Positions 4,589 through 63,434 of a stretch of 64,000 nucleotides of DNA are shown one piece after another. Made by a program: the position numbers and the translations under genes. Position 1 is the first letter of the stretch, and every line of letters begins with the position of its first letter. The notes under the pieces were generated by a model. The model searched no databases. It was not told the origin of the DNA and was given only the letters and a program-made list of their open reading frames with translations. The stretch is from Seison nebaliae (taxonomy: Eukaryota), in assembly GCA_023231475.1 (NCBI GenBank), contig JALJEE010001690.1:1-64000 (forward strand). The letters run 5' to 3'.

Positions 4589-7500
4589 CTAATTAATTGT
4601 TGTATTCGATTGAACATTATCCGGAGGCAATTTTGTCAAATAATTACCGAGTAGCAAATTTGAATTACTGTTGTTACTATTAATTGTAACATTGACATTC
4701 CCATTCAAACTTGCATTGTTGTTGTTGTTCTGGTTGGCATGAATTTGATGAGTTGAATTATTCATAATATTATTAATATCATTTGGCATCTTCAAGTAAT
4801 CGACAGTCTCATTTTTAGTGTTGTTGTTATTGTTATTATTTGAAATGTTATTACAACTGCTTTCTCCAGATGAAAGATTGGTCGTATTAGGTAAATTTTG
4901 TACGTTTTGGTTAAGTTGATTCATGATATTTAATCCGTTGTTCAATGTACCACTAGTGGTGACTATATTGGGATTGTACAAAGTAGTTGGATCACTCATA
5001 TAATGATTGTTCGAATAATTTAAATTGGGTTGCAACATTTTCAATAATTCCATCGTTACTTGTCTTCCGTTCATGTCAGTGCCATTTCCATAGGACAACG
5101 AACCTCCGAGATGGTTTATGGTGTTTAGAGAATTATCCGGTGTCGTACTTGACAAATTTAACAGATTTCCGAATTGTGGACCGATATTAGAAGAATAAGT
5201 ACTTTGTGACATAAAACGACGATCTCCAAACTCATTAAATTTGATTGGTAATGAGTAATCTATCAAATTTCTATTCTCGTCCGTATAGTAGTTGTGAGGT
5301 ATTTTCCGAGCGGTCGGGTCATAATTGGACGATAATGGCAATAATGTCGCGGAGAAGTCAGGTATTTGAAGTACTAGAATAAAAAATGCTAGGGAAAATT
5401 TCATAAGAAATATTAACACTGCAAATTGACCCCAAACATTTTTAAAGTGAAAAATGCAGCGATCTCCTTCGCATCCTGTGCCATTGGCACCGGATTCACA
5501 GTATAACCATAGACTTTACCACAGAGCGTTACGGTACAATGATAGACCTTCGTATTATTCTCCCCATCTAATGGTTGTAAGTCATATTTGGGGGTGATCA
5601 ATAATTTTTGTTGACAATAGAGTTCCAGAGCCTATAGAAATTACGAAAAATTTAAGAAGAAAATTAGTAGGAAATACAATTCCATTTGACATATTATACA
5701 GTTTTCAATAGAAAGTGGCAAATAATTAAGTTAATGGAAACGATGAAGCGTTAATGAAGAGGAAGCTGAGTAAATAATGTGGGGGAGGTGTGGAGGGAGA
5801 GAGAGACATGCGAAGATAATTGACAGAAACTAACTGCACAACAAGTGCATTTATTGTGATTTGTTAAGCTCTTCGATAGATAAGATATGATTTGGTCCAA
5901 ATTAGATGGTGATGCATTATTAGACAAGTCGATTAATTCAGGAATAGTAGAAGAACGCATTGGATGGTTGGTTCTTGGCTGTGTCATCGGATATGGCATT
6001 GACTGTAATCGAGATGTGGCTAAATAATTTCGACGAATCACCGAATTATTCGTTCCATTGTCATTGATAAAAGTTTGGGGTAGTATTCCTTGAGTATTCG
6101 CCAATTTTAAAAGTAGATTTTCATTAGATGATAAAAGGGAGTAATCAGTCTACAGAGAATCGTTATATAGATCATAATGAATGGTTGGATATTAAATGAC
6201 GAGAAATAAAAAAGTTTTCGGTCAGTAAAAATTTCAAAAATTTTCCATATAGAACAATTTGAAGGAACAAAAAATCGGATTTCCATACGAACAACAAGAG
6301 AATTGTGGAAAGATAAAATTTAATTAAATTTCACTCATTCAATAGAAAGTTATTAGAATCTTTTTTCCTTTCCGTAAAAAATCAACAGACAATTACTATA
6401 AAAATCATCTCCAAATGAATCTGATGACAATCGTCACATATTCCAAAGAACAGAGACTAAGAGGAGAATGTCGATATACTGACCTTCGGAGCTAACGGCA
6501 AGATATCATCGAATGCTACATTGCGAAATGAATCTGAAATTTAAAAAATTTTAAATTCTTCACAATTAACAAATTAAACATCTTCCTTGTTGCGCCCTAA
6601 AATAATAAATATTTATTTTAAACGATTACAAAGGAATTGAAACATCTGTCGAAGTTGTTGATCTTGTTTGGCGAGTGCTTTCGATTCGCGAATGGTAGTG
6701 AGAACCTGTTCATTCTTTTCTACCGGTTTCGCCAATTCAATTTCCACGACGGAATTCCCGATCATTTTATCTATGAGAAATTCGATTAATTCCATGAGAT
6801 GATGAAATCAATTCAAACTGTTCAAATATTCAATTGCTTTACATGCGTCTTCTCGTTCTTTGAAATGGACGAAAGCATAATCTCGAAGGACTCGTACACG
6901 TTCGATACAATCCGTTTTCCCAAGGACGTTTTGGATTGTACTTTGAATTAATTCGTTCGATGTGTTTGGCATGAGATTTCTAATGTAGATATTTCTTACT
7001 TTTTTCATAGTTTCGGGATCGACCTTATTTTCTGGCTCGGCCCAATCCACTGCCACTTCATTCGTCCACAATGTAAATGGTTTCTCTTGCAATTTCTTCC
7101 TTCCCAAGGCTGCTTGTCGATGTGTGGCGTATTCGACAAATGCGAATCCACGATTCTTTTTCCTGTCATCCATTAAGGGATAAACGATGGCTTTCACTAC
7201 ACCCTCCGTATGTTTTTTCATTTCCAAATAAATGTCATTACTGTTCTTGAGCTTAGGTATTCCACCGATAAATAACCGTTTCGTATCATGAATGTGCAAG
7301 ACGGTAACTGTACAATTCTCTCTAATCTGTTTGCCGTGCAATTTCTCCACAACCAAATCGGCTTGCTTCTTTGTCGATAGAGTAGCGAACGCGTAACATT
7401 TCGATAATTGATTCGCTTCAGTCATCAATCTCAACTCGTATAACTTGACGTTCTCTTGCGTAATAAATTTAATTATTTCATTCTCATAACAATTGGGAGG

Positions 7501-7737
7501 TAGTAAGCCTAAGATAATCTCACAACCTTCTTCGGGTGGATGATCTACCCAATTGGACGGAGGTCCTCCACATCGACGTTGACCATTATCCTTTTTCAAA
7601 GGACATCCAACTGATCGACAATATTGTTCAACAATCGCATCTCGACCTGCATTATCATTCATCGATGATAAAGTAGATTGGAATTGTTGTTGTTGTTGTC
7701 GTGGTTCGTATGATGGATCGAGATAAGACAAATTCAT
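4589..7737 (-). CDS. RBM46/RBM47/A1CF (dead-end/hnRNP-Q-related) RNA-binding protein: 3 RRMs, dsRBM-like domain, Asn-rich tail; 7 exons
   Basis: Family motifs GQRRCGGPP, KRLFIGGIPK, KNRGFAFVEY, VAVDWAEPE and LRDYAFVHF, plus LELYCQQKLLITPKYDL resembling the family's dsRBM-like domain. No long hnRNP Q/R N-terminal domain. Inferred introns 6771-6818, 6597-6643, 6534-6579, 6150-6483, 5632-5834 and 5374-5417 give one open frame. Confidence 0.85.
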
Positions 7738-10173: not shown

Positions 10174-11476
10174 TTAATGAGACAATGCATCGTTAATTAC
10201 TTTCAGATAATTCTCTTCCGTCTTCAACTTCTTACCTCTTTTTTCATAATTCGGATGCCACGTCACTTCTACCTCATCAGTCCGGAAACGTTGGCAAATG
10301 CATGTGTCACTTATCAAATGTTTCACTCCATTCTCGTACATCAATAAACCAGCTTGAGCGATCATTGCACCATTATCAATACAAAATCGTTCGTCTGTTG
10401 CGAACAATCTTCCTCCACGTTCTTTACACATTAGATCCATCATTTCTTGCAATCTCTTATTACAACCAACACCACCAACAATTAGAACATCACTCGAACC
10501 GACATGTGCCATCGCTCGTTCTATTTATAATGAATTGAATTTAAATTGATTTGATATGAATCAAATTTAAAAATTTTTTAAATAAAAACCAGTTATTTCA
10601 ATTAACATCGAGAAAATGGTTTCTTGGAGAGAGTAACACAAATCCTCTTTCGTATATTCACCTTTCTCATACAATTTCATTCCTTTTGTCTATTCATATA
10701 AGAAAATGATGATGAAAAAAATGGAAAAAACGGAACTTGAATGAAAGTGAGAATTCCACTCGTCGAAACGTCCATTCCCTTCACACTATACGGTAATTTC
10801 AAATATTTCTTTCCTCTATATAAATTGAAGAAAAGTTCCAGAAAGGAAAATAAAGAGAAGAAACTTTTTCGCCATTTGTTCGATATTGTAACCGGGAGAC
10901 GGCACATTCGACAACTACAAAATAAAATATAATTTTCAAAATTTTAAATTTTAAATTAATTTTAACTTTTATAATTCTGGCAAACTTGTCTAAACAATTT
11001 CCGACGGCTGTATCGAGTGTCTCACCAAAAATCTGATATCGGTCAACGGAAAATGCAATGATTTGTGTATTGCCACCACTCGCGTATAAGATAACCGGAT
11101 TCTCCGCCTTCGTTATCATTCGACCCATTTCAATGTGACCAATACAATGATTAACACCCAATATTGGTTTATCGAATAATTGAGATAAGGTCCTGGCAAC
11201 AACTGCCACATTTGCCAATGGAGCTCCCATTCCCGGTCCTTTTGTAAAACAGATAACATCAATGTTTTCCATAGTCATATTGGCATCCGTTAATGCTGCT
11301 TCAATCAAAGGAAGCACATGTTGTGCGTGATGTTTGGCAGTAGGAGAAGGTTGAAATCCTTCACCGATCGGTGCAGAATAAGTTCGACGAACATTAGCCA
11401 ATACTTCACCTTGAGATGAAATTATCCCGATTCCTATTTTATTAGCGCTACCTTCCAAACCCATTGCAATTGTCAT
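10174..11476 (-). CDS. OSGEP: tRNA N6-threonylcarbamoyladenosine transferase OSGEP/Kae1 (KEOPS); 5 exons
   Basis: [90 protein letters not shown]. Four short GTT..AG introns restore the frame. Confidence 0.97.
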
Positions 11477-13233: not shown

Positions 13234-15449
13234 ATGGAAATAAAACCATATTGGTTATTACCGGATTGTAATGGTGAACAATATGGAATTTTGTTCGTGG
13301 GAGAAGGAAATTTTAGTTATTCTACATCATTCATTCGATTGGTGAAAGAATCGAATGGGAATTTTATTGTGACATGTCACGAAAAAGCATCGGATAAAGG
13401 AGAGAATTGTCATCAGAAGAAATTGGAGAAATGTGAAATTCGAAAAAGGAATGTGAAAGAAATGGAAAAATCAAGTTCATTTTAAAAATTTGAAAATCGT
13501 TCCATTTATCAGAAATTAGAGAATGTTGAAATTCGTTTTGACTTCGATGCAACTGATCGAGATCATCTTCCACAATTTCCTTTTAAACATGGAAGAATAA
13601 TTTTCAATTTTCCTCATATTGATGGTAAAGCGAATATCGGAAAGAATCGTCAATTATTATATGACTTTTTAAAAAAGTTGGAAATATTTTTTTTTAATTT
13701 TATTCATTTTTTAATTATAATTCAGTTGTCGAGAAAGTTTCTCTCACATCAATTTAATTTCAAGTGATGTCGGTGTTGTGGTGACGTTGGCGAAAGGTCA
13801 AGGTGGAACAACAGCTGATGGTAATTATCGTCGAGAAGTGGAAGCGGACAGTTGGAAAGTTAGAGAATGATTCTTATTAAATTTTCATTAATTTTTCAGA
13901 TAAGTGAAATAGCAGCAGAAAATGGTTTCGTTATAACAAACGTAGCAAAAGGAGAAGAAATGATTCCGAAATTAGTAGACGAAAGTAACCATTATATTCC
14001 AAGTGGTTTTCGGTTTCCATCAATTTTCTCTATTTTCATTCTACTCCTAATATTTACAGTGGTACCACTAGAGAATTCCTCACAACTGGCTCCATCTGCC
14101 ATTTATTGAAACCAGTTGAACGAGGAACAAATTTAAAATTATTCTCTTCCTTAAGCTTACTTATTAATGAAAATGATGTTTACGAAATTGAGGGATCGAA
14201 TTGGTATCTCAATGTGTTATATTGGTCCTTCAAATTCAAGAGTGAAATTGTTGATTATTTAGAAAACGCATTAACAATAGACCATGTGCGAGCAAGGGGA
14301 AATGAGGAAAATTATGGAAAAGATGATTTTCATAAAAATTTCAAAGTAAAAAAACCGACGATTAAATTAAACGGAAATATTCTCAATCTCGAATATTTTC
14401 CATCAATTCTATATTATAGAATTAGGCAATATATCGATTCCTTTTGTCTCCCAATCACTCTCACATTTAATGCGTTTGCCGATTTCGATTTGGTTAAAGA
14501 ACATGACGAAGATCTCTCAAAAGGAGAATATAATCGATATATCAAATCTGCCATCAAATGGTCACCGACATGTTGTACCATTCAACGGTATTTAATCTAT
14601 ATTTCTCTATCCCCTGATTATATACGTTACCGTCCAATCATTGAAGGAATGAAATTGAAATATGGTTTGGGAAATTATTCGAAAGGAAAACATAGAGTTA
14701 AAATGGACATGACAGAAAAGTGGATGGAGTTCGTGGAAAAATTACACGAGAAAATAAAATGTGCATCCCTTCAAGTAATCGAAGAGGATCTTTATATTCG
14801 ATTTCAGTTGGATTATGATAATCGTACACTCCTTTATCTTCATATTTTCAACATTTCCAATATTTTGTGTGATATTTTCTCATTAGAAAATTGTGTTGTA
14901 TTCTGGTACAATCAATTGGAAGTATTAGAATCACTTCAATCGAATAAATGGAAGAGAAATCTTCAAATTAAAACTAGCAAACCGATAGATGAGGAATTTG
15001 AAATTTTAGATAGTTGCTTTAATAATTTCAAATTAGGAGCTTCTCTCCTTCATTCAAAATTGGGAGATTGGACTAAATCATCAGATCAACATCATCAAAA
15101 CCATCCTGGAAATCTCCTAATAAATTCTAATTCATTTTTTACCAATGTTTATGAATTCGATATCAATTTCTGGTGGTGTCGTCCAGACAATAAGGAAGAA
15201 GAGAAAAAATTCGATTTATTACAATTGAAAGAACTACTGAGGAATATTGGACATTTATTCATAAAATCCGTTCGAATTGTTAACATGTTTCGACATCCGC
15301 AAACTGGAGACTTAGCCAGATGTTATCGAATTGAATATCAGTCGCCGATACTTCCGTCATTTTTATCTTTGTCGAAAAAAGACGCACATTCTTTCCAAGT
15401 TCAATTGAGAAATGAAGTAAAAGAAAAACTCAAATATGACGTTCGTTGA
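13234..15449 (+). CDS. FDXACB1: Ferredoxin-fold anticodon-binding domain protein 1 (N-terminal Bmt5/DUF2431-like methyltransferase domain, C-terminal FDX-ACB); 5 exons
   Basis: ILFVGEGNFSYS, IFNFPH, IGKNRQLL, VTLAKGQGGT and DSWK in the first exons. C-terminal FDINFW...FRHPQTGDLARCYRIEYQS...LRNEV..VR. Four GTT introns join the pieces. Confidence 0.88.
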
Positions 15450-15498: not shown

Positions 15499-16715
15499 TT
15501 ACGTTCGACTTGATAAATTACCTGCTGTTGCGATAGCATGACTCTCCGTTCGGCCTGTTGGATTTGCATTTTTCTTTAAAATATTACCTGTTATCCAATC
15601 GTACATATAATCCAATCGATATCCGTTAACTTGATAGAGTTTTTGAAAAATATATCTCAAATAGGCATAATCAGGTCGCATTTCAAAATCCAATTCTCTT
15701 ACATATGTCAAATAACGAACGAAAACATCGGGCAATCCATCACATAATTCTTCAACACTCTTCTCTAATTTCTTCTCACAAATTCTGTCATATTTTTGTC
15801 TTTTCGTTGCTGCTTTCACTCCTTGCCAAGGTAGGATACCTCTCATAAAATATCTGAGGAATGTGTTGAAAGATGAGAAGTTTAAAAAGTAAGAAGAATA
15901 ACACTAACAATAATACATATCCTACTGCTTCCAAATCGTCTCTTCTACTTTGTTCCAAACCCAAATGTGCATTAATTGACACATATCTCGGTGTCCCGGT
16001 AAGTGCCTTGTCTTCCCGATAAGGAATATGAGCGTCTTTCACTTTCCATTTTTTCGATAAACCAAAATCAATTATATAAACCTTTCTTATTGAGAATTAA
16101 ATGAATAAATGAATAAATGAAACTTTGTTACTATAACGTCCCGTTCCCATCAAGAAATTATCAGGTTTCACATCTCGATGAATGAAATATCGAGAGTGAA
16201 CGAACTCTAATCGAACCAACATCTGGTCACCTAATAATAAAGTAGTCTTAAGAAAATTTAAAATTATGACTGAAATCTCCCGTAAAATATAAGTAATATA
16301 AGAGGAAGAAAATGTGGTTGAAATGAAGAGTAGAAACCTTTGTTGAGAATTTTCTTCCACAGAACGTGAACAAATCTTCGAGACTCGGTCCCAATAGTTC
16401 CATGACAAGACAATTGTACATTCCCTCTTGACCATAATGATAAATTTTTGGTATTCCTGGACCATTTTTCAAATAGTCGTTATATAATCGATTTTCGAAT
16501 GACAATTGTGGATTGGGTGTTTTATTCGACTCGATTTTTACTGCTAACTGAAAAGAGAATAATTTTAAATATTTCAAATTTTTATTACCAACTTTCTCAT
16601 CAGTAAATATATTTTTGGCTAAATAAATGTCGCCGAAACTACCGGAACCAATTTTGCGTTCAAGACGATATTGATCATTAACTATAAAATTGGAAGTTTT
16701 CTTCTCTTCCATCAT
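15499..16715 (-). CDS. Casein kinase 1 (alpha/delta-epsilon-like); 5 exons
   Basis: [88 protein letters not shown]. Four GTT introns. Confidence 0.95.
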
Positions 16716-17073: not shown

Positions 17074-18455
17074 CTATTCGATAGATCGATAATTTTCGAT
17101 TTGATTTGAAGACGAATAAAACTGATTAATATACTTCGCTGTCTCCTTAATATTCTCGTTGGATAATCGTCGTTGTGTTTCTCTTTCACGATCGGCTCGA
17201 GATAAATGCAAATGTTCGTCTTCTGTCGATTGTCTGTATTTCTCTTCTTCCTCTTCCTCTTGTTCCTGCAATTCTCGCGCAACACTATTCGATTTCTGAT
17301 GTCGTCTTTTGCTGATCCAATCGCTTAAAATCGTCTGATCAACTTCCCGTTCTCTTTCACGACTCTCTCTCAATTTCTCTTGTTCGTCTTCCGATATTTT
17401 GAAACGGGGAATGGAACTTTGAGGCACATCAGATCGTTTGATGACTCGGACGGAATTTTCCTGATATTTCGTTTTTGGCATTTCCTTCTCTACAATTGTA
17501 CCAGTTTCATTAAATTTATTTCTCATTTGTTTCTGTGTTTTCATCACTTCGATTAGATCTTTCGCTTCGTTAGCCATTTGTTTCTGTGGCTGTTGAATTG
17601 GTCGTATGAAACGGTTTGGATCGTTGAAATTCTACGAAAAAAATTCGAAAAATTTAAAAAACAAAAATTTTTTTTACGAACTGTCGATTTTCTCGCTTGT
17701 TGACCAGATCGAATGTATTGATTATCAAACTTCATATAAGTCGGATACCAATTTGGAGCGTTGTTTCTTCTCGTTTTTTGTTGTTGTTGTTTCGTTCTCA
17801 AAGATTCGCCAGTTAAAACAGAATTGGCACGTACATGTCGCTCATTTGGAGACGCCATTTGATTGGAAACTGATGAATAGGAATTCGTTTTCTGATGGTA
17901 AGATGGTCGGGGAGATGTATCAAGACTTGTGTTTGATGTACGAGAGATGGATCGATTTAAACGTTCGTGAGATCCAGTCGCTTTCTTCGTTTCATTGAAA
18001 TAAGTATTATAAGAAAACGTATTACGATCATTGCCTCCCATCGGGCTAGACGTTGCACTTCCGTTACTTTTTTTCAAATGATAAATTGGCGTTGGTGACG
18101 ATTTTCTCTCATTATTCCTTTTTCCAACCGTTGCTATGGTAACGGAAGATGGTTCAGATTTTCCATAAACTATTTTTTCGTTCGTCGAATTTCCTTTGGG
18201 GAATATTGGTTTCTTTTCATTGATATCACCCTTCTGTACACCGTCGGGTGTACTGGGAACTATTCGAATATTAATTTGGGTCGTTTGATTTTGTTTGACT
18301 GGCATTGGTCGTTCGATCGAACGAATATCAGTAATTTCTTTATTGGAGGTTGTGGAGGATGGATGAATAACATATCGTTTCGTATCTTTTCTCACTTTAG
18401 CCGACTCGGTGAGATGATCAACGGTTTTTATGGGAATTACTCGGTCCATCTTCAT
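17074..18455 (-). CDS. Uncharacterised low-complexity/disordered protein with a charged C-terminus; at least 2 exons
   Basis: The 300-aa and 167-aa ORFs join in frame through a GTTCGT..TAG intron near 17633-17680. No domain recognised. Confidence 0.7.
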
Positions 18456-23278: not shown

Positions 23279-26200
23279 ATGTCAATTAATAATGATGATA
23301 ATTGTGTCATATCGTGGCATAGTGAAAGTGAGAACGGTCAATTCAAACGAAAACGACAAAGTGAAAGAGACCAAACGATGAAAGAAGTGGAGAATGAACA
23401 ATTACTTAACTATAATGAGAACGATATATCGCCAATGGTTAATATGAAAATTTCATTTAAATTTCATTTAAATTTCTTCGATTATCTAAATTATTGCCAA
23501 GAATTTCTTATCGATTTTTTTATCATTTATTTGGTACGTATATTTCAACATTATAACGGGATAAGTCATAATAACATCAATCTCCTGCTATTATTATGTC
23601 GTTTTAATAAAATTAATAACATGAATGATAATGATCAATAACAATATTATCTTATAATTAATCAGAAAATTTTGAGGAAAAACGACACGAAAAACAATGT
23701 ACGTGTATAAATTTCGACTTTAAAAAAAAAGGAATAATCGGATGAATAAGATGTTTAACCTCTCTATCTCCGTATTGACGAAATGATTGTATTGTTTTCG
23801 GACGTTATGGTTGAGCGAGTGAAGAATATGCTGCATATTTACATTGGTATTTTTTCATTAAAAATCGTTTGATGAGAAGGTGAGTGTGAGAGTCGTCGAA
23901 AAATTAATGAAAACCTAATCTTTTGTCCTAACCAAAAAAAGCATATCGTAAATTTAATTAAAATTTCACTGTGAATTTTATATAAATTTGACGATTGACA
24001 AGAATTTTAATGATAATTACAATTTTATTAAATTTATTTAAATTTCTTCTTGTGCTTTAGATGAAAGAACGAAAACTTGGACGGTTTTTCGTGCAGTCCA
24101 TCCAATTGGATGAAACGGATGGTGGAATTGCGCCCGAGAATGACATCGAATTGGAGCAACAAGAAAATGACCATTCATCAGTAATTTCGTCTACAACGAC
24201 ATTGTCTTGTAGTTCGGTTGATGGGAAATATTGTGAATCTTCGACATCTCCAACGAAATCATCATTCAATTATCAGAAGGAAGATTTGGAGGAAGGGAAA
24301 TCGACATCACAAAAAAAGAAGGAATCGATAAAAGAATATGAAGAGAATTTAAATAAAATGAGAGAACAAATGAAAACATTCGCAAAAATGATGGAGGAAC
24401 AACAACGACAATTAAAGAAATTGGAAGATGGAAATGAGAATGGAGAGACTTATGTCCGATTGAAACGAAATAATCAAACAAGATCTCGAAATAAAACGAC
24501 AAGAATCGCTTATAATATGTCGACTGATAGTGATGGAAGTGATGGAATAATTTCACATGAAAATCGAATAAAACGATTGCGTTCCAGAACACATCCACAT
24601 AAAACGATTGAATTCAAAAAGAATGATGATGATGATTCGAAATTTATGTGTGATTTAAATGAAGGTGATCAATCGAAACAGAATCACAATGAAAATATTC
24701 GACAATCATCTCTCAATAATGAAATGGGACAATCGAATCGACATAGTCGACAAATGTATGAAAATAATCAAACCTCATCATATGATCATTATAATACATG
24801 GAATAATGAACCTCAATTGAGGAAGGAATTCCTTCAAGAATTTCAAACTAATAAAAATAAATTATTTAATCATTCGACAAATCAATCGAATTATAATAAT
24901 GATACAATATCAATACCACAAATCACATCGACTGATGATAATGACATTTTACCGAAAGAAGTTCATTTTGAAAATGTGAGACAAAAACGTAGAAGATCAT
25001 CGACAGTCATTAAGAATGAGAAGAAGAATGAACAGAAAGAAAAATTTCCAGGAAGTCAACGATTGTTTCAACAACAATTCGACATCTTTAGAAAGCAAGG
25101 ATTGTCCATTGAACAAGCTGAAGAGAAGACTCGTGAAATTTTTAAAGACAGTCAATTATTGAAGAAGAATGAAGAGAATGGAGATTTAACGATCATCGAA
25201 GAAGAAGATGATGATAATCATAAACGTATAAAAAGAAATAATTTGAGATTATTAGAAGAGAAGAAATTGGATCGGAAACGACGTTTAAATGAGTTGGAGA
25301 AGAATGTAGAACGATATGATTTGATTTTAGAAATAATGCAAAGGAAAATTCCATCGAAAATCAAACGAAGTTTCGATGAAGAAAAAAGTCATTATAATCA
25401 ATATATGATCGTCATTTGTAGTTTATTATATGGATTGATATTGACAATGATTGGTTTATCACTTTCATTATTTGAAGTTTTAACGGATGATGATTTGAAG
25501 AAAGAAACAAATCTTTATTTTATCATATTATATATTATTTCTATTTGTTGGATGCTCTTCATTTATGTCGATATGTATATTAAGAGACGACAGAATTATG
25601 TATCGAAAGTCATCATAAAAAAGAAAAGTTTCCTTCAACGATTATTCTGTTATTTGTCATCAAATGATTTGAAACCGATGCAATCGAAAGACGATTATAA
25701 ATTGAATGAAGACGACTTAGAAGATCAAAATACAGGAATCTCTTATGTTTGTACAGGACGAATTTGCTCCAAAAATTGCACAGTCTCCGTATCATTTTTC
25801 AAAAAATTGTTTTATTGTTTTTGTTGTTGTCTATTTCGAATCAATGACGATAGTGGTGAAATGGAAATGGGAAGTTTTATGAGACGAATTCATTATCTGT
25901 TGAGTCGATGTCTTCCAAATCATTTCAAAGTGAAAGAGAAAATTGATGAAACGGAATTAAAAGAATTATCTCAAAAGAAGTCGAATTATTTGAATTCTTA
26001 TGATGTCATTTTGAAAAGAGAAAGTAAACAACATGGATATCATTTCGATAGTCGTGTTGAAGTGGCTGGGCTGTTTGTAAAATATGGATGTGCTGCATTT
26101 TGTGCTGCCACAGGTGTACTCATCGGACTCAAATTAGCTGTACAATTGAGCGATGTGACGATGAGTACAGCGGAATTTTTCGAAAATTTATTTGGATTAA

Positions 26201-31145: not shown

Positions 31146-31176
<31 letters not shown>

Positions 31177-38760: not shown

Positions 38761-40108
38761 ATGTTACATAGTGATGATGAAGTTATTTTTGTCTTTAAAC
38801 AAAATTGATATATTTCGCATGTTTTCTAGAGCTACTTAGAATATGAAACAGCTTCATCTACTGCAGGAAGTTTATTGAATGATAATAATTATGAGAATTA
38901 TCAGGACGAAGAATTCAAAGAAATAAATTATATTTCAAACGATCAATTGGATAATAGAGTTGATCAAGATGAAAATAAAATAGAAAATAGTCATTATAAC
39001 TACCAAGATAATGGGAAATCCCAATATGATGAATATAATTATGATATGCATTTAAATCAATTCAAACGTTGGTCAGATTTGGAAGAAGAACTTAATAATG
39101 AAAGGAGAAATCCGTCAGAAGATGCTGATTACGGAAATTTCAACAAAGAAATGAGTAGTAAAATGAATTGTAGTAACTTTAAGAAAGTAGAACATTTGGA
39201 TGACGAAGTGAAGCGTTTCAAAAAAATCTCTATAGATGGAACAGAAGTTGAAGAAGAAGTAGATGAAGTATCATCTTCATTTTCGTCTCCTATCAACACT
39301 CGACCGTTTCATCGAGACAAACCAACTCCAGAACCTAAAAGTAACGGTTGGAAAAATATTTTTCGATCAGTTTTGAAAATTCTAATTGATTTCAGATATA
39401 GACGAAAAGAAATTTAATGAATTTCATAAAACGTTTTATAAGAAGAAAAAGAATGAAGAGAACATTTCACTGGAAGAATTAAAAGTTAAAAATTATTAAT
39501 AAACTATCTATTATTATCTTGGAAACTACAGGAACGATTTGTGAAAAGTAAAGAGTTGAAGGAAGAAGGTAATTTTGAATTTAGTAAAAGTAATTTCAGA
39601 GAAGCAATCATATGTTATACCAGAGCTCTCTATAATTGTCCATCGGAGAAAACCGATTTCATTTCTATTCTCTTGCAAAATCGAGCTACTTGTTTCCTTC
39701 ACCAAAATACTGACGAGCAAGCGATCCAAGATTTAAATACAGCTATTAACTTCAACAAGAGATATGTTAAAGCTTATATGAAACGTGCTAAACTTTTAGA
39801 GAAGTTAAACAAACTAGAAGGTGCTCTTGAAGATTATCAGACAGTGAAGGAAATTGATAAGAATATTCCCGAAGTCTATTATCAGATTATGGTTAGGAGA
39901 TTATGAGAATAAAGAATAAATGTTTCATCTTTTATAGAGATTAGACGAATTGATAAAGACAAATAATGAAAAATTGAAAACTGAAATGTTTGGGAAATTA
40001 AAACTTTTAGCGAATGATTGTTTAGGTCGATTCGGTTTATCAACAGATAATTTTCAATATGAAAAAGATCCACAAACTGGAAATTACAGTATTAATATGC
40101 AACACTAA
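38761..40108 (+). CDS. Tetratricopeptide repeat protein 1-like, paralogue A (long acidic N-terminus); 5 exons
   Basis: Three TPRs (LKEEGNFEF...NRATCFL...YVKAYMKRA) and a TTC1-type C-terminus EMFGKLKLLANDCLGRFGLSTDNFQYEKDPQTGNYSINM. Four GTT introns. Confidence 0.85.
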
Positions 40109-40316: not shown

Positions 40317-41645
40317 ATGTTCTCTATCAGCAAATGTATCGCTAGTCAATTTCTGAATAATAAGATACCTCTTCGATTATTTTCGTTAATTTTCTCTCGT
40401 CTAAAACTTTTTGAAATGATCTTTCCAAAAGTTTAACATCTCAGAATGATCGAAAATACAAAAAACCTTATGAAACAGCTCCAGTACGAAAACGTGGTGG
40501 AGGATATGACCAATTGTTAACTGAAGAGAATCGTTCGTTTTTGAAAAGTTTAAGGAAAGAATCATATAAAGGGCCGCTAAATATTGAACAATGGCCGAAA
40601 TATGAATGGTCTGAAAATCCAATGTTTCATTTAATTTTAAAAGAATTTGAAATTTCTAATCTAAACAGAACAGTTCGTTCGGGAGTAATTGCTATAAAAT
40701 TGGGATCTATTCCTCAATGGCAACCGAATGGAACTCGTGTTTTCTGCACCGTCCTCCAAATTTTAGATAATCATATAATCTCATATACATCTCCCGAACA
40801 AGTCAAAGAACGGAAAGATTTCAAACAAATGAAATTTACAAATGACGGTGAATTTGGAATGCAAGTTGTCGGAGCAATCAGTTCTGATCATCGAATAGTT
40901 TTTTCTAATAATTTTTTATTATTTTACACAATTTTATTTAGTTCACTAAAGATTATTTGAATTTATTTTTAAATGCTGGTGTACCACCTAAACGGATCTT
41001 ATCCAAATTTATCGTCAGTCCACATTCGGCTTTATCACCCGGTAAATTTTATTTCAATTTTCAATTTATAAATTCTTTTCAGGTACAAAATTAACGTCGA
41101 AACATTTCCGTGTTGGGGATTATGTGGATTGTCATTCAAAAACTATTGGATGGGGTTTCGCCGGTGTGATGAAACGATGGGGAATGAAAGGTGGTCCAGC
41201 TTCTCATGGAGCTACAAAATTCCATCGAAGAAGAGGAACAGTGAATAGTGGAAGAAAATTGTCAAGAATCCTTCCAGGAACTAAAATGCCGGGAATGATG
41301 GGCCAATATTTTCGGAAATTGAAAGGACTTCAAGTTTTTATTTTCTTTTTTTTTTAATTTCAAAATTAACATTTTCAGATTTTACGAGTTGATGATGATT
41401 TGAATTTGTTATTCGTCAAAGGAAAAAACATCCCTGGATCGATCCATTCTTATATTCGTGTAACAGATTGTTGTTTTAAGTTTCTTTTAAAATTCGAAAT
41501 ATCAGACATGAAAATTATTTGAAGACATCGAAGGAAAATGTGGAATAAAGAGAATCATCCACCTCATCCAACCGCTAACGAGGATTATGAAAGAATTGAA
41601 GAGAAGAATATTTTACATAAAATGGAAATGAAAAAATTGAAATAA
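40317..41645 (+). CDS. MRPL3: Mitochondrial large-subunit ribosomal protein uL3m; 7 exons
   Basis: [66 protein letters not shown]. Six introns (five GTT, one GTA at 41042-41082). Confidence 0.93.
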
Positions 41646-41674
41646 TATTTTCTTTCTTTCTATAAAATGTAAAT

Positions 41675-42833: not shown

Positions 42834-43747
42834 ATGAATAATACGAAAGAAAATGATTCAGATGTTAATATTATTATGGAATTTTAAATTACATTAAATT
42901 TTTTCAGACAAGTTCTACTGATTATGATACAGCGTCATCGAACGGAGGAGATGTTGGAGAAAGAATGGGAGACACCGATTTACCAAATATGGAAAAATGT
43001 TTATAATATAATTTTCATGTTGGGAAGTAATTGATTTGACAGTAAATTTAAGTGAGTATTATATCGATTTTGATAAGAAGAAAGAAGTCGAATCAAAATT
43101 AACAGAAGAAGAATTAGAAGTTTCTTCCTCTTAATTTACTCACAAAGAAAATCATTTTAAAGTTTTATTTTAGAAAAATAAGAAATTGGCAGTTGAAATG
43201 AAAGAAGAAGGAAATTCACAATTCGTTCAAGGTAATTTGAATGGAGCGGAAGTGAATTATTCTTATGGACTCGATATCTGTCCATCAACTGATAAGAAGA
43301 TGATTTCTATTTTATTCCAAAATCGAGCAGCATGTTTCTTACGAGAAAAGAAGAAACAAGAAGCTCTTGAAGATCTCAATGCTTCCATTCAATTCAATGA
43401 AAATTACATTAAAGCTTATTTGAAACGTGCGAAATTGTTAGAGGAAATGGGCAAATTAGACGAGGCATTGGCCGATTATAAAACTGTTAATGAAAAAGAT
43501 AAAAATGTCCGAGAATGTTATGTTGAAATGATGGTTCGAATTTCTTTTTCCGAATTATGAATTGGTTTTCTTTCAGAGATTAGAAGAATTGATAAGAACA
43601 AGAAATGAAAAGATGAAGGAAGAAATGATGGGAAAATTGAAAGATTTGGCGAATACTTGCTTAAAACCTTTTGGTCTATCTACGAATAATTTCCAAGTTC
43701 AACAAGATCCTTCCAGTGGCAGTTATAGTATAAATATGAAGAAATGA
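42834..43747 (+). CDS. TTC1: Tetratricopeptide repeat protein 1, paralogue B; 5 exons
   Basis: MKEEGNSQF...NRAACFL...YIKAYLKRA TPRs and [41 protein letters not shown]-terminus. Four GTT introns. Confidence 0.9.
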
Positions 43748-43799
43748 AAAGAATTTATAATTTTACTTTTCTCTCATTTGTTTTCTCATTTAAAATAAA

Positions 43800-45233: not shown

Positions 45234-45334
45234 TATTCAATAGTTGAATATTATCTCAGTTTTCAATACATTTATTTCCTATTAAATATTATATAAATAA
45301 TAAAAATTTCTTTTCTTTTTTCAACAACTTCAAG

Positions 45335-46612: not shown

Positions 46613-46831
46613 ACTTCAAGAATCAGATTAATCGATTTATCAAATCAAAGTAACATTTTTTGAATATACTTAAAAATTAAAAATTTGGTTTTACAGTCTT
46701 TATAAGTTTATCTATTCTGATAATTTATAACGAGTTAGAAAATAAACTAAATTTCGAAATTATAAGAAGTTTAAAATTAAAGCTTATCATCATATTATAT
46801 CATCGTATTCTTTTGGCGTGGAAATAGTAAA

Positions 46832-51100: not shown

Positions 51101-54100
51101 AGATCTGGTCATTTTCGTGTGTTTTATCCGAGTTTTGTTGAACTTAGGACATTATATATATATGGAGAATGTCTCACAATATATTGACATATAACTGACA
51201 TTTATGGGTTGTTCAACTTCTTATAATTTACAAAGCTTATTATTTCCATTCTTTGATAATACTCAATTTTTGTTAACATAATGAAATCGGTGAGATGTAA
51301 TTTAGTTTTACACTCAATTTCGGTGGGAGATCAAATTTCCACTTCCTTCGAGAATTATTTGGCAGATGTCCATTTTTCGGAAACCTTTCACCGAGTCGGA
51401 TATTGGCCGAACAGAAGTTCATCTTCATTCGAATGTTCTACTCACAACTCATGTTTGATATGTAGAGAAGAGAATTGGGTGAAGATAAAGAGAAAAATAA
51501 TGAAACAAACTGTTTTATATTGGAGTCTATTGTAGACTGCATTTACACCCTATCCAGTTTTTTCTTGGACTCACGTAAAAGAAGAATAAGTACATTAGCT
51601 GCTGGTTTCTTCCAAGTTGCTGTTGATATTGTTACTCTCGTTCATCGTCATATGATCCGGTTGCGATGTGTACATGAGATGTTTATTGGCATCTACAGAA
51701 TAATTTGTGGTATGAATTAACCAGAGGGAATTTCTTATTGCGGGGGGTTCCTTTTCTATAACGACCGATGATTGTTTTTTATTAATTCAAATTAAACATT
51801 CTTTACAATAACTCTAATTTTTTCATGCAATTCTTGAACCAATTATTCAGAAATATAGAAAACTCTTTTACTTAACTGAGAATTGGGAATTGTGTGACCA
51901 TATAGTTCAACAACGAGTTATTGTCCTTCTTTATTTAACGATTAGCACAACTCGAATAAACAGTTGGTCCAAATAGACTTATACGTTTTACTCGAATGAG
52001 AAGAAAACATGTGAAGTAGTTGCACTAGGAAAACAGATATTGACTATCATTCTTTCCAACAACTAACTGTTCATATTATCATTATCCATACGTCTATTGG
52101 AGTGATAATGGAGAGAGCTCGCCAATATTTCATAAAACCAAAATTATTCAGTTGTATAGAAATATTATGTCTATAAAATACTAGTTGAACAGTCTCATGT
52201 AAACATTGATATGTAGTGAATGTCTCCAATACTTCTAAATAAAGTGGTTGTCAGCTGTTGACATAAAATATTTCCCTATTTACAAACTGTTTGGGAAAGT
52301 TGTTTCGAGTTGATACGACTACCATTGATTAGGGGAACGAATGAGAGAAATCAGTGACGAAGTGAATCAAATAATAAGAAATAAGTAAATCAATACATTT
52401 ATACTTATTGCATGTTTATTTTTAATATAACTATATCATCTATTTAACTGTATACGAAACTCATTTTTCTAATGTTCATTTCTTCTATATATATTCTCAT
52501 GTTGGAAATGGACAACTGCTTCCTTAAAAAACAACTACTAGACCATTCTTTCAGCGCAATATAATGCATCTTATTTTAGAACTATAGTTATATCGATTAA
52601 ATGGTTTTTATATATTCCTTCACATTCCATCGTCAGTGTTCCATTCATTCAATATCTGAAAAAATTTCTTATATTAATAGTATTCTTCGATTATTATGCG
52701 TAGGTATTGTAAAGAATAATGGATGTTTCGATTCCATCATAATCTGTAGTGGAATTTCATTGCGAAATAATTATATTTCTGTGCGAACGGCATAATGTTG
52801 GAAACGACGTAATGTCTCGTAATATTAACAGAATAATATGAATTTGAAATTAATAGTTTTTGTGAAATAGTAACGAAAAATCGATTGCACCAATATTCCA
52901 TAATGAATTCGAATCATTCTCCTTCCAACGATATTCGAATGTTCCATCATTGTTGAATGAAATCTTATAGTATAAACTTCACATTGAATCAGTTTGTAAG
53001 ACACTGACATAATATCAGTGATATTCAACTATTGTTCTATATTTCTTTAAGGAAACTGCGAGTAACATAAAAGCGTATCGTTGTCTTGACAACGATAAAA
53101 ACAAAGAAATGGAATGATGTTATTGTTTTCTAATTTTTATGTTCATTCTTTCCAAAGTAAATAGGAGAATGTTTTAATTCGTTTATATTAACGTTTGATG
53201 TTTAAAGTGAAATTTGATGATTATTAGGTTAGTAAATGCATTTTCTCATGAAACCGAGAAATATTTTGATATTTATCTATGTTTATCTGTTAAAATTATC
53301 ATCGATAATTAAGTAATTAACACAAGAATGTCAAGAGAATTGATGATTTTATTTTTTTTATGTTTTTATTATTTATCTTATTTATTTTCACTTAATTATT
53401 ATCGATTTTCGATTATACAAAAAACAGTTTGATTATTGTTGTGTTTCAGGAATTCAACTTGAATAAGTCAACTCCTCTTTTTTTAGAAGTGTTTTCTTTT
53501 CCCTTTGGAATGTTTGTCTAATGAAAAATATCTTATTTTTTCAAATACATAACTTTAAACGTCTACCGATAAATATTCTTTTTCTGAAGAGAGATTGAAT
53601 TGGATACCATCAAAATAATCATGTCCGTTCCCACTATTTTTACGTTACTTGAATTAGAGATGTTTAGAGATTGGGTTGTTAAACTTTCAACCGATTGGGA
53701 GTATTCTTCATGGAGTGTGTAACGTCGTAGTAATATTTGCCGTCGATTTTGTCTCTGTCTTCTACCTCCAGTTGAGTGAGGTAAACTTCCATTTTTCCTA
53801 CCTCTAAATAAAGAATGGTTGAAGATCTTATTTCCGTTAGGCACGTGTGTAACTGAGTGTTTATAGATTTCTTTTTACTAACAACTTCATCAGAAAATAT
53901 GTATGTTATTCAAAAAAAGAAAGTTATTTTTTTGTTTGAAATTAATAAATTTTTTTCAAAATTCTCTTACATGTGGAACGATTAATTTTTACAATAATGC
54001 AAAACAATGGGAATATGAAGTCACGTGTAATATTTTAAAAGTCTTTATGTCTGTATCTATCTTATACATTATTATATCATCTGATTCCCATAATTATATT

Positions 54101-54414
54101 GACGAATAATATATTGACGTGAGATGTGTTGAGCACAATGATACACAAATAACACAACACACGAAGACATATGTATTTGTGACGTGTGTATGTAATGGAA
54201 TATTCCAATTGTGACTATAAAGTTGATTCATTCATTCATAAAATAAATTCTTCTTCTTTCCTCTCTCTCATTCCCCCCGACATTTCCTTACTTTATACAT
54301 CACTCACAAATGAATGTATATGTATTAAACGTACGCGTACGTCCACATTATTGGCTGTGTAGTAGAAGAAATATTCTTTTGATATTACGTGTAACTACTG
54401 ACTGCTTTCTATTC

Positions 54415-54443
<29 letters not shown>
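54415..54443. repeat. (GT)n(AT)n microsatellite
   Basis: gtgtgtgtgtgtgtgtgtgtgtatatatat seen directly. Confidence 0.9.
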
Positions 54444-54447
<4 letters not shown>

Positions 54448-56005
54448 TGCGTCTACGGATGACGATGTTTGAAAATTGTAATATAAATAAGTTAATGCGT
54501 AAATAAAGTTGTGGTAAGAATTGGAGTTATATAATAAGATATAATGATTCTAGAATAAAAAATGTAATATATTAACGTGAGAATTAAGTTGAATGATTCA
54601 GTTATTAATTTATTATCTCATCCGTCTAACAAGAAGAATGATGATGATGATGATGAATTCATTCATTCTATTCTATTCTATTCACATCACATTAAAAGAA
54701 GAGAATGGATTGCTTTCTCCACCACTTGTCGATATTTTTGATGGATTAGATGTCGTATCAATATTCTCCAGTTAGGGAATATCGTTCGATGAACTTATTC
54801 ATATTCTCCATAGAAATTATTGAACATTCTTCTTCTTTGATCATCGACATAATTTAAATTCGAATCGATATGATAATCGTCTAAATAATTCAGTTGTTAA
54901 TTACTAAATGAGTAAATGTGATTCTGTCGATTTGGATCATTAGGGAACGGGAAGATATTTGAAGAAGATGATAAAGTCGTCATTGATGAGGAGTAATAGT
55001 GGTAGTGGTGTAAGTGTTGCGATGTCAAAGATCATTGGATCTAGATTGAAATCGTTAACAACCATCTCATACAGTGATCTAAGAGATAAAGTTGTGTGAA
55101 TTAGGAAAGAATAAGGCCGTTTACACTTATCGGTTATTCACACGGCCGTTATGTGTCTTTCTTTCTTTTATGTTTCTTGTGTGTTAAACTTCAATCCATT
55201 TCGAATGTGAAACCGAAAGAAGAAAAAATCGTCCAAGTAAAATCATAATATTCACGATTCTCTCATTCTTTTCTTCTCACATTATTGTCAATAGGTGTGA
55301 GAGGAGGAGGAGGAGAAGGAGGATTTGATGGATGATATGACTTTTCTTATTTTTCTTTATCATCCATCGATTCTCGCCACCCACAACCATATGTGGATAG
55401 AGACACTTCACGAATAATCATTAGTTGACTAATTTATCTCACGTCAAATTCCATGTTACTTCGAAAAGAAATCTCGATTTTAATTTTTTCATATTTTATT
55501 TCGTTGAGACACTCTCTCATCATTATGATGATTAACATTCGCCTGAATGGATATCGGTCAACGAAAAATCGATGTTCGAATCGATGAAATGAGAGATCGC
55601 TACTTATTGAAAGGAGAATGAAATATAAGATGAAAAAAGAAGTCGAATTGATAAGATTGTCATCCTTATGTGTAGTGGTTTTTTGAAGGGGGGCCAGTCT
55701 CGCCACAAGTGTTTCAAAGGTCATCAACATATTCATCGTTCGTAGTAATAGTAGTGAGAGACGTAAAAATTATGAGGTGAAGTGAACGATGACCTTTTCT
55801 TTCTTTTTTTCTTTCGTCTCATTCACTATCGTTGATTCGGTTAAGAGAAGATTCATCTATAAATTAGGAAGTTATCTCAAGAAAAATTTCCATATTATAT
55901 TTTCTTTTTTTTTTCAATAATTTTCATTTTATTTCTTTTGAAATTCTTCTTCAATTTTTTAATAATTTCTTTTATTTTTTAGACAGAATTTTGAAATACA
56001 GTATC

Positions 56006-57171: not shown

Positions 57172-57203
<32 letters not shown>

Positions 57204-59938: not shown

Positions 59939-60957
59939 TTATTTGAAATCAGGATGTTGTAAAGGTAGAACATCAGGTGTTTTGAGACAACAAGAATTCT
60001 CAACCTTAACAATAGCACCAGTTCGTTGTAATCCGATTAATGTCATTTTCTTACATGTACATTTACTTTCAGGCAGAGGTGGTATATTCATGGCATCATA
60101 AGAATAATGTTCTTGAACTCCTCCATCTTTTCTCAAAGAATGTTTCGAAAGTTCTTTAAGTAAACTATTTCTTCTATCTTTATTAGCATCTTTCATAAGT
60201 TCATCTAATCTATCAGAACCGGTTGCTCCTGTGAGTAATCCACTTACATCCACTTTCGATCCTAATGCACTTCTTGAACTATCACCTGGTCTATCGATTA
60301 ACGTCTGTTGTTGCTTGAGAAAGAAAACACATTTACGGAGTGATTCATCCCAAAGTACGTCTACAGAATAGACTGTGAATTAGATTGAATATTCTCTAGA
60401 ATGATTGAATGGATTAGGAGAGAAAGGAGTAACATAAGAAATTGATGCCATTCATTTGAGACGGTGCTGCACACCAAATAAAAAAGAAAGTCTTATATGT
60501 CCAATAGAGTGGTAGATCAACTCTCATGGGAATTTCTTGACTGATTTCAAGTACAAGAAATATTAAATATAGAAACCAGTAGATGGACCATCGCGTTTTC
60601 GATGAATATGAATTAGCCGATTTATTTTTATCCGTCAAACTAGAAACGATGAAGATTAAAGTATTGATTAATCATCGATAAAATTATTCAATTAGTCAAT
60701 AAAAGAAATGGAAACCAAATACACAACGGGTAGGCGATTAATATAAAGAAATTACATAAGAGGAAAGCCCATGAACAAAAAGTAAGAATGAGAATGCCGC
60801 TACCACAGTAGACTAGATTAATACAGTTTTTTTTGTTCGACGTAATCGTAAAGAAAATAATTAAACTCATTTGTTGATGTCTCGAAGATAATCCAGTTGT
60901 TGATTCTATTAAATCAATAAGAAAGTTCCTCTCAAATATCGTTTTCTGGTCGGTCAT
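59939..60957 (-). CDS. REEP/DP1/Yop1 (TB2/DP1/HVA22) family ER-shaping protein, divergent; 4 exons
   Basis: LLCNFFILIAYP, TRWSIYWFLY and PLYWTYKTFFFIWCAAPSQMNG match the REEP5/6 pattern. Three GTT introns join the ORF pieces. Confidence 0.8.
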
Positions 60958-62346
60958 TTTCAATTAGATAATACTCCAATTTCGACTAGAGACAATAAGA
61001 CGAAATAAGATTTTAATTACAAAAAAATAATAACTTGTTCGATTTAGCTCGTTCGGAAAATATGAAATTGTTTTTATTTCTTTCTTCTCCCTTCAATTCA
61101 ATCGTTTAATAATCGGAAATTAAATTGAACTAATTTTAATGTATTCTTATTTAGTCAAAAAGGAGGAGACTCATGTTGAATAGGTCGCGCACTTTTAACT
61201 TCATTATAATAGTTTATTCACTTCACTTCCAAACGCCGAATGTTAATTTGAGAAACTTGTCTACCAATCTATTGAGAAGAAGAATGACAGCGAAATAATA
61301 CTTTCGAACAAGGTTAATGAAATGTGTAACCGCAAATGTAATTAGATAGACACTTCGTTTATATGTACGTCCTCTCGACGAACTCTATAAATAATGAAGA
61401 CATTGTACTCTAAATCTAACACAAATATTTTTCAAAAGAATTTTTTATATTTTAACTAATTCAGTCGAACACGATGTAACGAATCTTCATTATGGAATCT
61501 CATATATTTAAATATTCTTTTAGGTATTATCAGATAATTCCACATGGTTCAATTATCGAATGGTTCCACTGATATCATTCGTTCAGAACTCAACGAATAT
61601 GTAACTAATATTTTATAAAATTATAATAAATTATCGTTGTTTTAATAAATGAAGTTTTATTTCTTTAAAATTTCAAGATTAATTGGTGGTCGAAATAGAA
61701 TTATGATGGAATTTTATATTCTTTATGTTCTAATTATCAGTTGATGGATGAAAAGAATATTCTACTTTAAGTTTTAAAAATAAACGAGTGAAAAATGTAC
61801 GTTTGAATGGAAATGATATTGATATTATTATGCTGCCCTATTATTCTTGGGTGAAAGAAGAAAGAATGGGAATAATGGCGAAAAGAATCGAAGTGGTGAA
61901 TGTTTATCTGTTTCACATATAATTGAGTATTGAGAACATATGGGAATGTCGATTAAACGATTTTCATCGATTATCGGTATCAATCAATTGTTTACGGACT
62001 CTCACATTCAATATTTCTTTACACTCTCTCATTCGATTATTCGATCAGGCTAATTTCTCTTTGAAAGATTTAGGTGAACTGTCCATTTTATCTAGGTCAG
62101 ACAGTTGATTATGCGATGTGACGCAATCGACCTCATCATCACCTCGCATCATTAACATTATTCTCTTCAATCGATTCATTATCTGACTCTCGCCTTCTCT
62201 TTCTCATGTGTATACGACTTACTCACCACCATATGATGGAGTTGACTATAAATATCGAATAAATTTTCGATTATAACATTATCTTTCGTTTCTTAGGAAT
62301 TCATTATTTTTTCTTTAAAATATTTCGGGAGTTTCTCTTCGACAAA

Positions 62347-63434
62347 ATGCACTTCCCCACTCTTCTTATGGTAGTTTACTTATCTAGTCAACTAGTATTT
62401 CTGGTACGTTCTGAGAATAAAGTTAGTTTTGATTTGAAATTCTATAATTTCTCTTTTGTTGAAGGATGCATTTAAAATGAATAAATATGGATCATATGGT
62501 CAAATTTTATATTTCAGTCAAACCCTTCATCCATACATCGAAGTTAATGCTAATGGCAACATCACTCTCACATGTTCAATACGATCATCAGAATCTTCTG
62601 ATATTCTCTGGTATAAGAATGATGAATTAATTTACCAAGTTCCCTTTTTTTCCCAATTAATTTATCTTTATTAAAATTTCTAGACAAACCTGTTACAAAT
62701 CGAACGATCATATAATGAACAAATGAATTATAATTTAGGTATTTGGAAAGACACATATGTGGTGCAGACGTCTCATCTTTTCATTCCATGTGCACAATAT
62801 ACTACCAACAATATCCGATATAGTTGTGTCGTTCGAAATCATTTCAAGACTATTCAGTCTAATACGATAATACAAGTGAATGAACATCCTTTAAGAAAAC
62901 ATCATCGATTTCTTTCTCGATTCAATGACATGAGACCGTTAAACGATTTATATGAAATGAATATATGTGAAAGTTAAAATAACCGTCTGCCTATAAAACC
63001 ATAAACATTTTTAAAAAAGATAAAAAAGAAGAAATCGTCTCGACATTTGTTCGAAAGAATCAACATCCGAATGATAATATGTTGTTCATCTGTCTCCATA
63101 ATTATGGAAAATCAACTAAATGGTACGAAACAACTTCAAATTATGAACAAAAACAAATTAAGAATAATGAACAAACAGAAGACAATTATTTAGCAGAAGT
63201 TAGTTCATCATCTATCTCACATCATTATCAATTCTTTCATAGTTTACTGAACATAAACAAATTCTCATTTTGAAAGATATCAATAAATCACCGATTAATC
63301 GTCGATCTTACATTTCTTGTTCGATCGATGACAAACGTCAATTTACTACTGTTCTTACAATGAATCAACGAAGTTATCTTCGTAAAAGTTCAATGAGAAA
63401 CCGATTAGACCACGTCACGCCAATGTCATGGTAA
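62347..63434 (+). CDS. Secreted immunoglobulin-domain protein, ZIG/Imp-L2-like; probably 5 exons
   Basis: Signal-like first exon (MHFPTLLMVVYLSSQLVFLVRS). Ig domain ITLTCS...ILWYKN...SHLFIPCA...YSCVVRN, then a degenerate second C..W..C unit. No TM segment. The last two exon junctions are uncertain. Confidence 0.6.

Follow-up and report, generated by a model that had tools for sequence, protein, structure and literature searches.

The purine at the third intron position (+3) and the ACUUAC box of U1 small nuclear RNA (snRNA) belong to the least variable features of splicing, and 5´ splice sites (donors) of animals usually begin with GTA or GTG. The base at +3 pairs with pseudouridine 6 of U1 and later faces G44 of U6 (PMC8283771; here and below, statements on published work refer to the available passages of each paper). 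Donors of animals and plants have been divided into two types, AG//GUNNN and NN//GURAG (PMC11732430). In Entamoeba, 88-90% of donors read GUUUGU and 97-98% GUUUGN; its U1 carries ACAAAC and its U6 keeps ACAGA, and Mastigamoeba possesses a further U1 variant (bioRxiv 10.1101/2022.06.08.495308). In Saccharomycotina, a switch from A to U at +4 is tied to loss of METTL16 and SNRNP27K, with U1 and U6 unchanged and +5G invariant (PMC10581693). Here we describe introns predicted in one window, the whole stretch of 64,000 nucleotides (nt) at positions 1 to 64,000 of contig JALJEE010001690.1 (assembly GCA_023231475.1) of Seison nebaliae. This small marine seisonid rotifer lives on Nebalia and comprises two lineages. 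Its genome measures about 46 Mb, and roughly one third of the metazoan BUSCO genes are missing (PMC8351084). Its predicted introns begin almost uniformly with GTT, a state apparently undescribed for an animal.

The curated set consists of 51 predicted introns in 12 genes on both strands (Table 1), reconstructed from the DNA sequence. The window has 31% GC and its genes are of animal type, among them those for otopetrin, coronin, a KH protein and an Ig-domain protein; neither Rfam nor ARAGORN revealed any RNA gene in it. Three runs of DNA contigs cover 35200-55100 evenly and show no intron-sized GT-AG joints, which says nothing about splicing. All 51 introns have GT...AG termini, 45 of them are 41-55 nt long, and in 35 the length is not a multiple of three (hand count). 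Their removal restores reading frames, in agreement with profiles for OSGEP and casein kinase 1 (CK1) and with the public gene models present in the window, SNEBB_006843 (813 amino acids, aa) and SNEBB_006835 (OSGEP, 357 aa), both on a 153,044-base contig.

On the parse of an earlier sequence-only reading of the window, the donors are 49 GTT, one GTA and one GTC. Four introns have alternatives, namely CK1 intron 1 (GTA), intron 1 of the FDXACB1/BMT5-like gene (GTG at 13454, seen by eye), intron 2 of the REEP/TB2-DP1 gene (GTG at 60724) and intron 3 of the Ig-domain gene (GTG at 62967). If all four went against GTT, the count would fall to a floor of 45/51. That reading had reported about 53 GTT donors among some 55 introns of 14 genes; the bias stands on our smaller set of 51 introns in 12 genes. 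The donors it named at 35700, 36218, 36410, 36560 and 36700 do read GTT, and both exceptions, GTA at 41042 and GTC at 6483 (minus strand), are present in the sequence. For FDXACB1, its parse of four GTT introns holds at 13677, 13859 and 14013, with the first open to the alternative just given.

GTT prevails in every class of support: in 7/7 introns tested with homologue profiles (tier A), in all 11 short introns backed by a public gene model (tier B), in 15/17 backed by paralogue or homologue alignment and frame (tier C) and in 15/15 backed by frame only (tier D). Among GT trinucleotides, GTT accounts for 40% in the whole window and 17 of 31 within intron interiors, where T makes up 49% and A 33% of bases. 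Against an expectation of 0.40, 49/51 has p=2.4e-17 and 45/51 has p=1.7e-12; against a generous 0.6, the values are 2.9e-9 and 9.4e-6. Base composition cannot produce 88-96% GTT. The sequence-only reading had taken AT-richness to favour GTA and GTT equally, which is slightly off given the T-rich interiors, although its point that the bias goes beyond composition is right. We consider the GTT bias of the predicted Seison introns very probably real.

Several tests of intron boundaries did not assume GTT. The 813-aa SNEBB_006843 protein was mapped onto 35.6-38.7 kilobases with no splice signal imposed. It defines 12 introns with a single GY-AG placement each, and 12/12 start with GTT, including all 11 that had been claimed for this gene. 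The twelfth, 239 nt long, bypasses a stop at 38409; it is doubtful and was excluded from the curated set, and this terminal intron of the public model is probably an annotation error. For OSGEP, we used a profile of 99 homologues without the window's own protein and allowed any dinucleotide, which gave 76-126 candidates per intron. The GTT placement scored best at all four introns, as claimed, with ties only from score-neutral slides, and the resulting junctions are those of SNEBB_006835.

A profile built from 75 homologues put GTT at the top for introns 2-4 of CK1. At intron 1, a GTA placement (16588-16544) scores 511.1 bits versus 508.0 bits for the GTT placement (16592-16548). The GTA version places V at the junction, the residue of 116/133 homologues, and the GTT version L, found in one homologue; the GTT version takes the first, stronger-looking acceptor. 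Judged by homology, this intron more likely starts with GTA instead of GTT, and the earlier claim of four GTT introns in CK1 is not secure. A diverged low-depth copy of CK1 occurs in DNA contigs, where 8/8 listed indels fall within intron 15854-15908 and 30/35 listed substitutions in the next exon hit third codon positions, reaching the first exon base (hand count); the copy represents a second lineage or a paralogue. Among low-depth diverged contigs at 15595-16410, one is about 85% identical over CK1 intron 4, with the intron about 11 bases shorter, and another apparently contains a second CK1 gene.

The two TTC1-like paralogues (38761-40108 and 42834-43747, plus strand) flank mRPL3 and IMP4 and are 52-67% identical in the parts compared. 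Their mutual alignment runs to the donor and restarts at the same residue, so that alignment and frame agree on four GTT introns in each copy, as the sequence-only reading had it. Alignments of mRPL3, read by eye, back the GTA exception at 41042 and also the intron at 40624, whose removal clears an apparent insertion.

An ab initio parser neutral with respect to +3 was trained on long exons and on intron interiors of OSGEP and SNEBB_006843, and scored on held-out regions. It found 33/36 curated held-out introns and placed GTT at 28 of the 33 (hand tally). Its 55 held-out calls comprise 31 GTT, 13 GTA, 6 GTG and 5 GTC. Three observations weigh against a near-universal GTT: the shortfall from 33 in this tally, the 15/51 introns that rest solely on frame restoration and, as the main counter-result, the 22 further calls of the parser, which include just 3 GTT (hand tally). 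The 22 calls mostly fall within long open frames, beyond a stop, or inside an eight-exon model of 107 aa that lacks homology. Inspecting them by hand, we judged them spurious, the parser over-calling introns in open frames.

Bdelloid rotifers served for comparison. A metagenome scan with IMP4 of Adineta vaga returned 16 loci, of which seven distinct bdelloid ones (90-96% identity to Adineta over ungapped matches) were kept and supplied 30 introns at 7 positions. Dropped were L001 and L002 (match span without room for introns), L009 (match figures equal to those of L008), L015 (same donor as L008), the intronless L014, and L006, L007, L010 and L013, which are not bdelloid and match all named animals at about 65% identity. 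The 30 bdelloid introns (48-69 nt, loci with 21-32% GC) start with GTA in 19 cases, GTT in 9, GTG in 1 and GTC in 1. They are non-independent; counted by position, 3/7 tend towards T (Fisher p=0.0025, calculated with an uncorrected 48/51 for Seison). All 11 bdelloid donors lacking +3A carry +5G, versus none of the 19 with +3A. In Seison, +5G occurs in 14/49 GTT donors, and GTT with neither -1G nor +5G makes up 30/51 donors, versus 0/30 in bdelloids. Because +3U of Seison mostly occurs without -1G or +5G, whereas a non-A base at +3 in bdelloids always comes with +5G, +3U of Seison behaves as a matched base. The IMP4 gene of the window (41675-42649, minus strand) contains no intron versus 6-7 in bdelloid loci, and its protein forms an unplaced long branch in an IMP4 tree (quick method). 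Unbroken coding frames are also seen in a MECR-like gene, coronin, a poly(A) polymerase-like gene and the KH gene. Together with the intronless IMP4, they suggest patchy intron loss in Seison.

Apart from +3, the donors are loose. Their composition (n=51) is A33 at -2; A29 and G11 at -1; A25 and T18 at +4; A15, C15, G15 and T6 at +5; and T26 and A20 at +6. Over background, the 49 GTT donors are enriched in -2A (32), -1A (29/49, p=0.001), +5G (14, 4.4-fold, p=2e-6), +8T (32) and +9T, and weakly in +4A and +7A. No enrichment was found for -2C (5/49), +5A (14/49), +6G (2/49), +7T (22/49) and +8A (10/49), and -1A is not coupled to +4A in these donors. In this small sample and with uncorrected p values, +5G is found in 11/26 donors after a +4 purine versus 3/23 after a pyrimidine (p=0.03), and +5C in 12/23 after a +4 pyrimidine versus 3/26 after a purine (p=0.004), including 10/18 donors with +4T (p=4e-4). 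These look like two donor sub-classes; we found no counterpart of the +5C class in print. The commonest pentamer is GTTTC (10/51) and there are 25 hexamer types overall, with pentamer GTTTG occurring once in 51. All three non-GTT donors (41042, 6483 and the CK1 alternative) carry -1G versus 9/48 GTT donors (p=0.011). U12-type introns, whose donor motif is GTATCCT or ATATCCT, were rejected, as hexamer GTATCC occurs in 0/51.

At the other end, acceptors (n=51) are TAG in 26 introns, CAG in 18 and AAG in 7, with no GAG. Exons resume with A in 28/51 and with G in 10/51, so the usual AG/G junction preference is replaced by AA/A. Within the last 40 nt of this small AT-rich sample of introns, CTAAT, TTAAT, TTAAC and TAA show no positional peak that would mark a branch point, and CTAAC and CTGAC are absent.

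We suggest that a part of the splicing machinery, most likely U1 RNA, now recognises a different base at +3. The sequence-only reading had already proposed such a shift of donor specificity, which is supported by the excess over composition, by the contrast with similar bdelloid introns, by lack of an introner family and by lack of -1 or +5 compensation for +3U. In its specific form, which we hold to be evenly poised between right and wrong, the proposal is that U1 of Seison carries A opposite +3, for which the changed U1 of Entamoeba offers a precedent. The pairing region would then read ACUAAC in place of ACUUAC and form a Watson-Crick pair with +3U in normal register. Of the positions that pair in this register, -2A, +5G and +8T are enriched in the 49 GTT donors, and +4A and +7A weakly so. 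Presumed selection for +3U would have converted older introns from GTA to GTT, without their replacement by mobile introns. The rare GTA and GTC donors might survive through extra pairing of -1G, and ACAGA of U6 would still read +5G. Duplexes were calculated with both U1 versions. Paired to the standard U1 end, the actual donors have a mean of -1.99 kcal/mol versus -2.97 for composition-matched random GTA sites, so GTA is what a standard U1 should prefer. The order reverses for the variant with A opposite +3, at -2.89 kcal/mol for actual donors and -2.48 for random GTA sites. An Entamoeba-type U1 end fits Seison donors no better than random GTT sites (p=0.8).

There are several points that speak against a changed U1. 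The pairing gain is partly built in, as the variant was chosen to match +3U, and even this variant pairs weakly with Seison donors. It leaves -1A (29/49) and the GTTTC class unexplained, and -3C, -1G and +6T show no enrichment over background in the 49 GTT donors. Other lineages with shifted donors keep their U1: it is unchanged in Thecamonas, Mamiellales and 69 yeasts (bioRxiv 10.1101/2022.06.08.495308), as well as in 227 Saccharomycotina and 9 outgroups (PMC10581693), though those shifts are at +4. Alternatively, +3U might be selected at the U6 step, through a G44-U wobble or a G44-to-A change, with uridines of U5 loop 1 gripping the A-rich end of the exon and only a minor part left to U1 pairing. 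The non-Watson-Crick pair of +3 with G44 is important for catalysis (PMC8283771), and GUU might extend the pairing to ACAGA, as considered by Roy and Bowser (bioRxiv 10.1101/2022.06.08.495308). The absent enrichment of -3C and -1G, which only U1 would read, next to enriched -2A, -1A and +5G, points the same way, and so does the scarcity of AG/ exon ends (2/51) and of GURAG (0/51). Yet ACAGA is invariant in 240 fungal species (PMC10581693) and unchanged in Entamoeba (bioRxiv 10.1101/2022.06.08.495308), and +5G is present in just 14/49 GTT donors. Moreover, a G-U wobble with unchanged U6 is open to all eukaryotes, which nevertheless prefer a purine at +3. We regard selection at the U6 step as possible, if on the unlikely side. 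A more radical proposal is that the donor code was rewritten to a reduced AA/GUU signal with two sub-classes, GUURG and GUUYC. Two U1 variants would read it, or else a changed U6 with little need for U1 pairing; this proposal appears doubtful to us. Standard snRNAs might also be retained and +3U enforced by an altered protein, such as U1C, LUC7, Prp8, factors of the Cwc25/Yju2 region or a TIA-1-like binder of U-tracts. To our knowledge, no protein change is known that turns +3U near-obligatory. The precedent comes from yeasts, where +4 shifts follow loss of METTL16 and SNRNP27K and not snRNA change (PMC10581693), and from the highly diverged U1C of Entamoeba (bioRxiv 10.1101/2022.06.08.495308). 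The enrichment of T at +8 and +9 and the missing BUSCO genes of S. nebaliae (PMC8351084) would suit a protein as well, but overall we find it distinctly unlikely.

The remaining explanations require no change of the machinery. Standard U1 could read the donors in a register shifted by +1, with -1A, +1G, +3U and +4A pairing one step out. Such pairing is documented at rare human sites (Roca and Krainer 2009, cited in PMC4856993), it would explain +3U and -1A jointly without any mutation, and the non-GTT exceptions carry -1G. Two bases that fit this register, -1A and +9T, are enriched. However, the bases that distinguish this register (-2C, +5A, +6G, +7T, +8A) are unenriched while +5G is enriched, and -1A is uncoupled from +4A. 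The donor logo thus favours the normal register and argues against the +1 shift, which the sequence-only reading had not considered and which we hold to be improbable. An artefact of T-rich introns, combined with choosing GTT during frame restoration, deserves attention because intron interiors are 49% T, because CK1 intron 1 was called GTT and is probably GTA, and because the set rests on predicted introns, with public models that may stem from a predictor trained on the same genome. It is very improbable in view of homologue-only scoring, which gives GTT in 7/8 tested introns, of the neutral parser (28/33), of bdelloid introns from AT-rich loci (only 9/30 GTT) and of p at most 9e-6 even against 0.6. 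Finally, the introns might be copies of a mobile intron-generating element (introner) that starts with GTT, to which their narrow lengths (45/51 at 41-55 nt) would conform. Compared in pairs, 49 short introns reach a top score of 33, within the range of 29-43 from 20 shuffles; there are no target-site duplications, the junction repeat being at most one base in 46/51. Four intron positions are common to TTC1 paralogues of 52-67% identity, and several positions in OSGEP and CK1 presumably match vertebrate ones. Introner spread was rejected on lack of similarity above shuffles and of target-site duplications, and we assign it a practically negligible chance.

The only compensated case of +3U that we found in print is that of an intron-poor amoeba with rigid signals. 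If our suggestion is correct, an animal has arrived at +3U with several introns per gene retained and with +4 to +6 still loose, and joint evolution of donor code and spliceosome need not homogenise the signals. The system would then test directly what reads +3, be it U1 nucleotide 6, U6 G44 or a protein, with bdelloids holding the ancestral state. Gene prediction based on standard donor models will put splice sites in the wrong place in the Seison lineage. The sequence-only reading knew of no such description for an animal. Our search likewise found no publication describing a dominance of GTT donors in Seison or any other animal, with the reservation that most subscription papers lay outside the search and that public intron databases may show the logo. 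A survey of 17 metazoans mentions no +3U-dominant species in the passages shown (PMC10599564). The main text of the Seison genome paper, in its available part, has one match to 'splic' and none to snRNA (PMC8351084); the available passages of a lamin paper mention Seison splicing only as alternative splicing (PMC10125929). Seison appears in the supplementary species list of PMC10639083 and is absent from its main text.

Table 1. Predicted introns of the window by gene (a slash in donor sequences separates exon and intron)
Gene	Positions	Strand	Introns and donors	Support and remarks
A1CF/RBM47-like RRM-dsRBD gene	5374..6818	-	5 introns; GTT at 6818, 6643, 6579, 5417	model 703 aa
A1CF/RBM47-like gene, GTC donor	6483, intron to 5632	-	AAG/GTCAGT	852-nt intron
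OSGEP	10521..10966	-	4 introns, all GTT, 47-69 nt; 10966, 10864, 10736, 10589	profile and SNEBB_006835
FDXACB1/BMT5-like	13475..14059	+	4 introns, GTT; 13475, 13677, 13859, 14013	model 677 aa
Casein kinase 1 (CK1)	15854..16592	-	4 introns; GTT at 16337, 16123, 15908; intron 1 GTA or GTT	
Gene without name	17632..17681	-	1 intron, GTT, 50 nt	frame only
5´ of large otopetrin exon	23438..24060	+	1 intron, GTT, 623 nt	frame only; weak
SNEBB_006843	35700..38186	+	11 introns, GTT, 42-49 nt	public 813-aa protein mapped back
TTC1-like copy a	38782..39937	+	4 introns, GTT; 38782, 39347, 39485, 39892	paralogue alignment and frame
mRPL3	40385..41524	+	6 introns; GTT at 40385, 40624, 40898, 41334, 41480	model 353 aa
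mRPL3, GTA exception	41042	+	CCG/GTAAAT	
TTC1-like copy b	42864..43576	+	4 introns, GTT; 42864, 42999, 43120, 43534	positions match copy a
REEP/TB2-DP1 gene	60361..60866	-	3 introns, GTT; 60866, 60715, 60433	frame only
Ig-domain gene	62422..63242	+	4 introns, GTT; 62422, 62639, 62973, 63199	frame only

Some further features of the window were recorded. The 852-nt intron of the A1CF-like gene harbors a 132-codon open frame (5751-6149, minus strand), which may be an alternative last exon that drops the dsRBD. SNEBB_006843 (35573-38747, plus strand) has no Pfam match in three tested exons and matched only itself among 485 longer candidates. Otopetrin is encoded by a single frame of 1811 codons (24061-29496, plus strand) with long insertions and a histidine-rich tail. 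A broken non-LTR retrotransposon lies at 820-2511 (plus strand), with endonuclease and reverse-transcriptase domains in separate frames. The repeated element at about 45330-46600 has roughly tenfold contig depth in part and apparent inverted ends near 45350 and 46590 (by eye); it is possibly a nonautonomous DNA transposon.

Taken together, the donors of Seison resemble those of Entamoeba in near-universal +3U (45-49/51) of U2-type introns, and both are host-associated lineages with compact genomes. Seison also shows signs of intron loss. Unlike the rigid Entamoeba hexamer, positions +4 to +6 are loose in Seison, +4 is mostly A and GTTTGT occurs in 0/51, on which count a rigid donor of the Entamoeba type was rejected. 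The amoeba Entamoeba has few introns, with fixed branch points, whereas Seison is an animal with up to 11 introns per gene and no branch-point peak seen in this small sample. Human sites read in +1 shifted register share the A/GUU start (-1A, +3U) with Seison, but they are rare and need +6G and -2C, which Seison has in only 2/49 and 5/49 donors (PMC4856993). With the two-class donors of animals and plants, Seison shares GU-AG termini and residual -2A and +5G, yet neither class fits, as AG/ is found in 2/51 and GURAG in 0/51 (PMC11732430). Although the switch of Saccharomycotina occurred at +4 and that of Seison at +3, with +4 staying mostly A, both represent a lineage-wide switch of a single donor position to U (PMC10581693).

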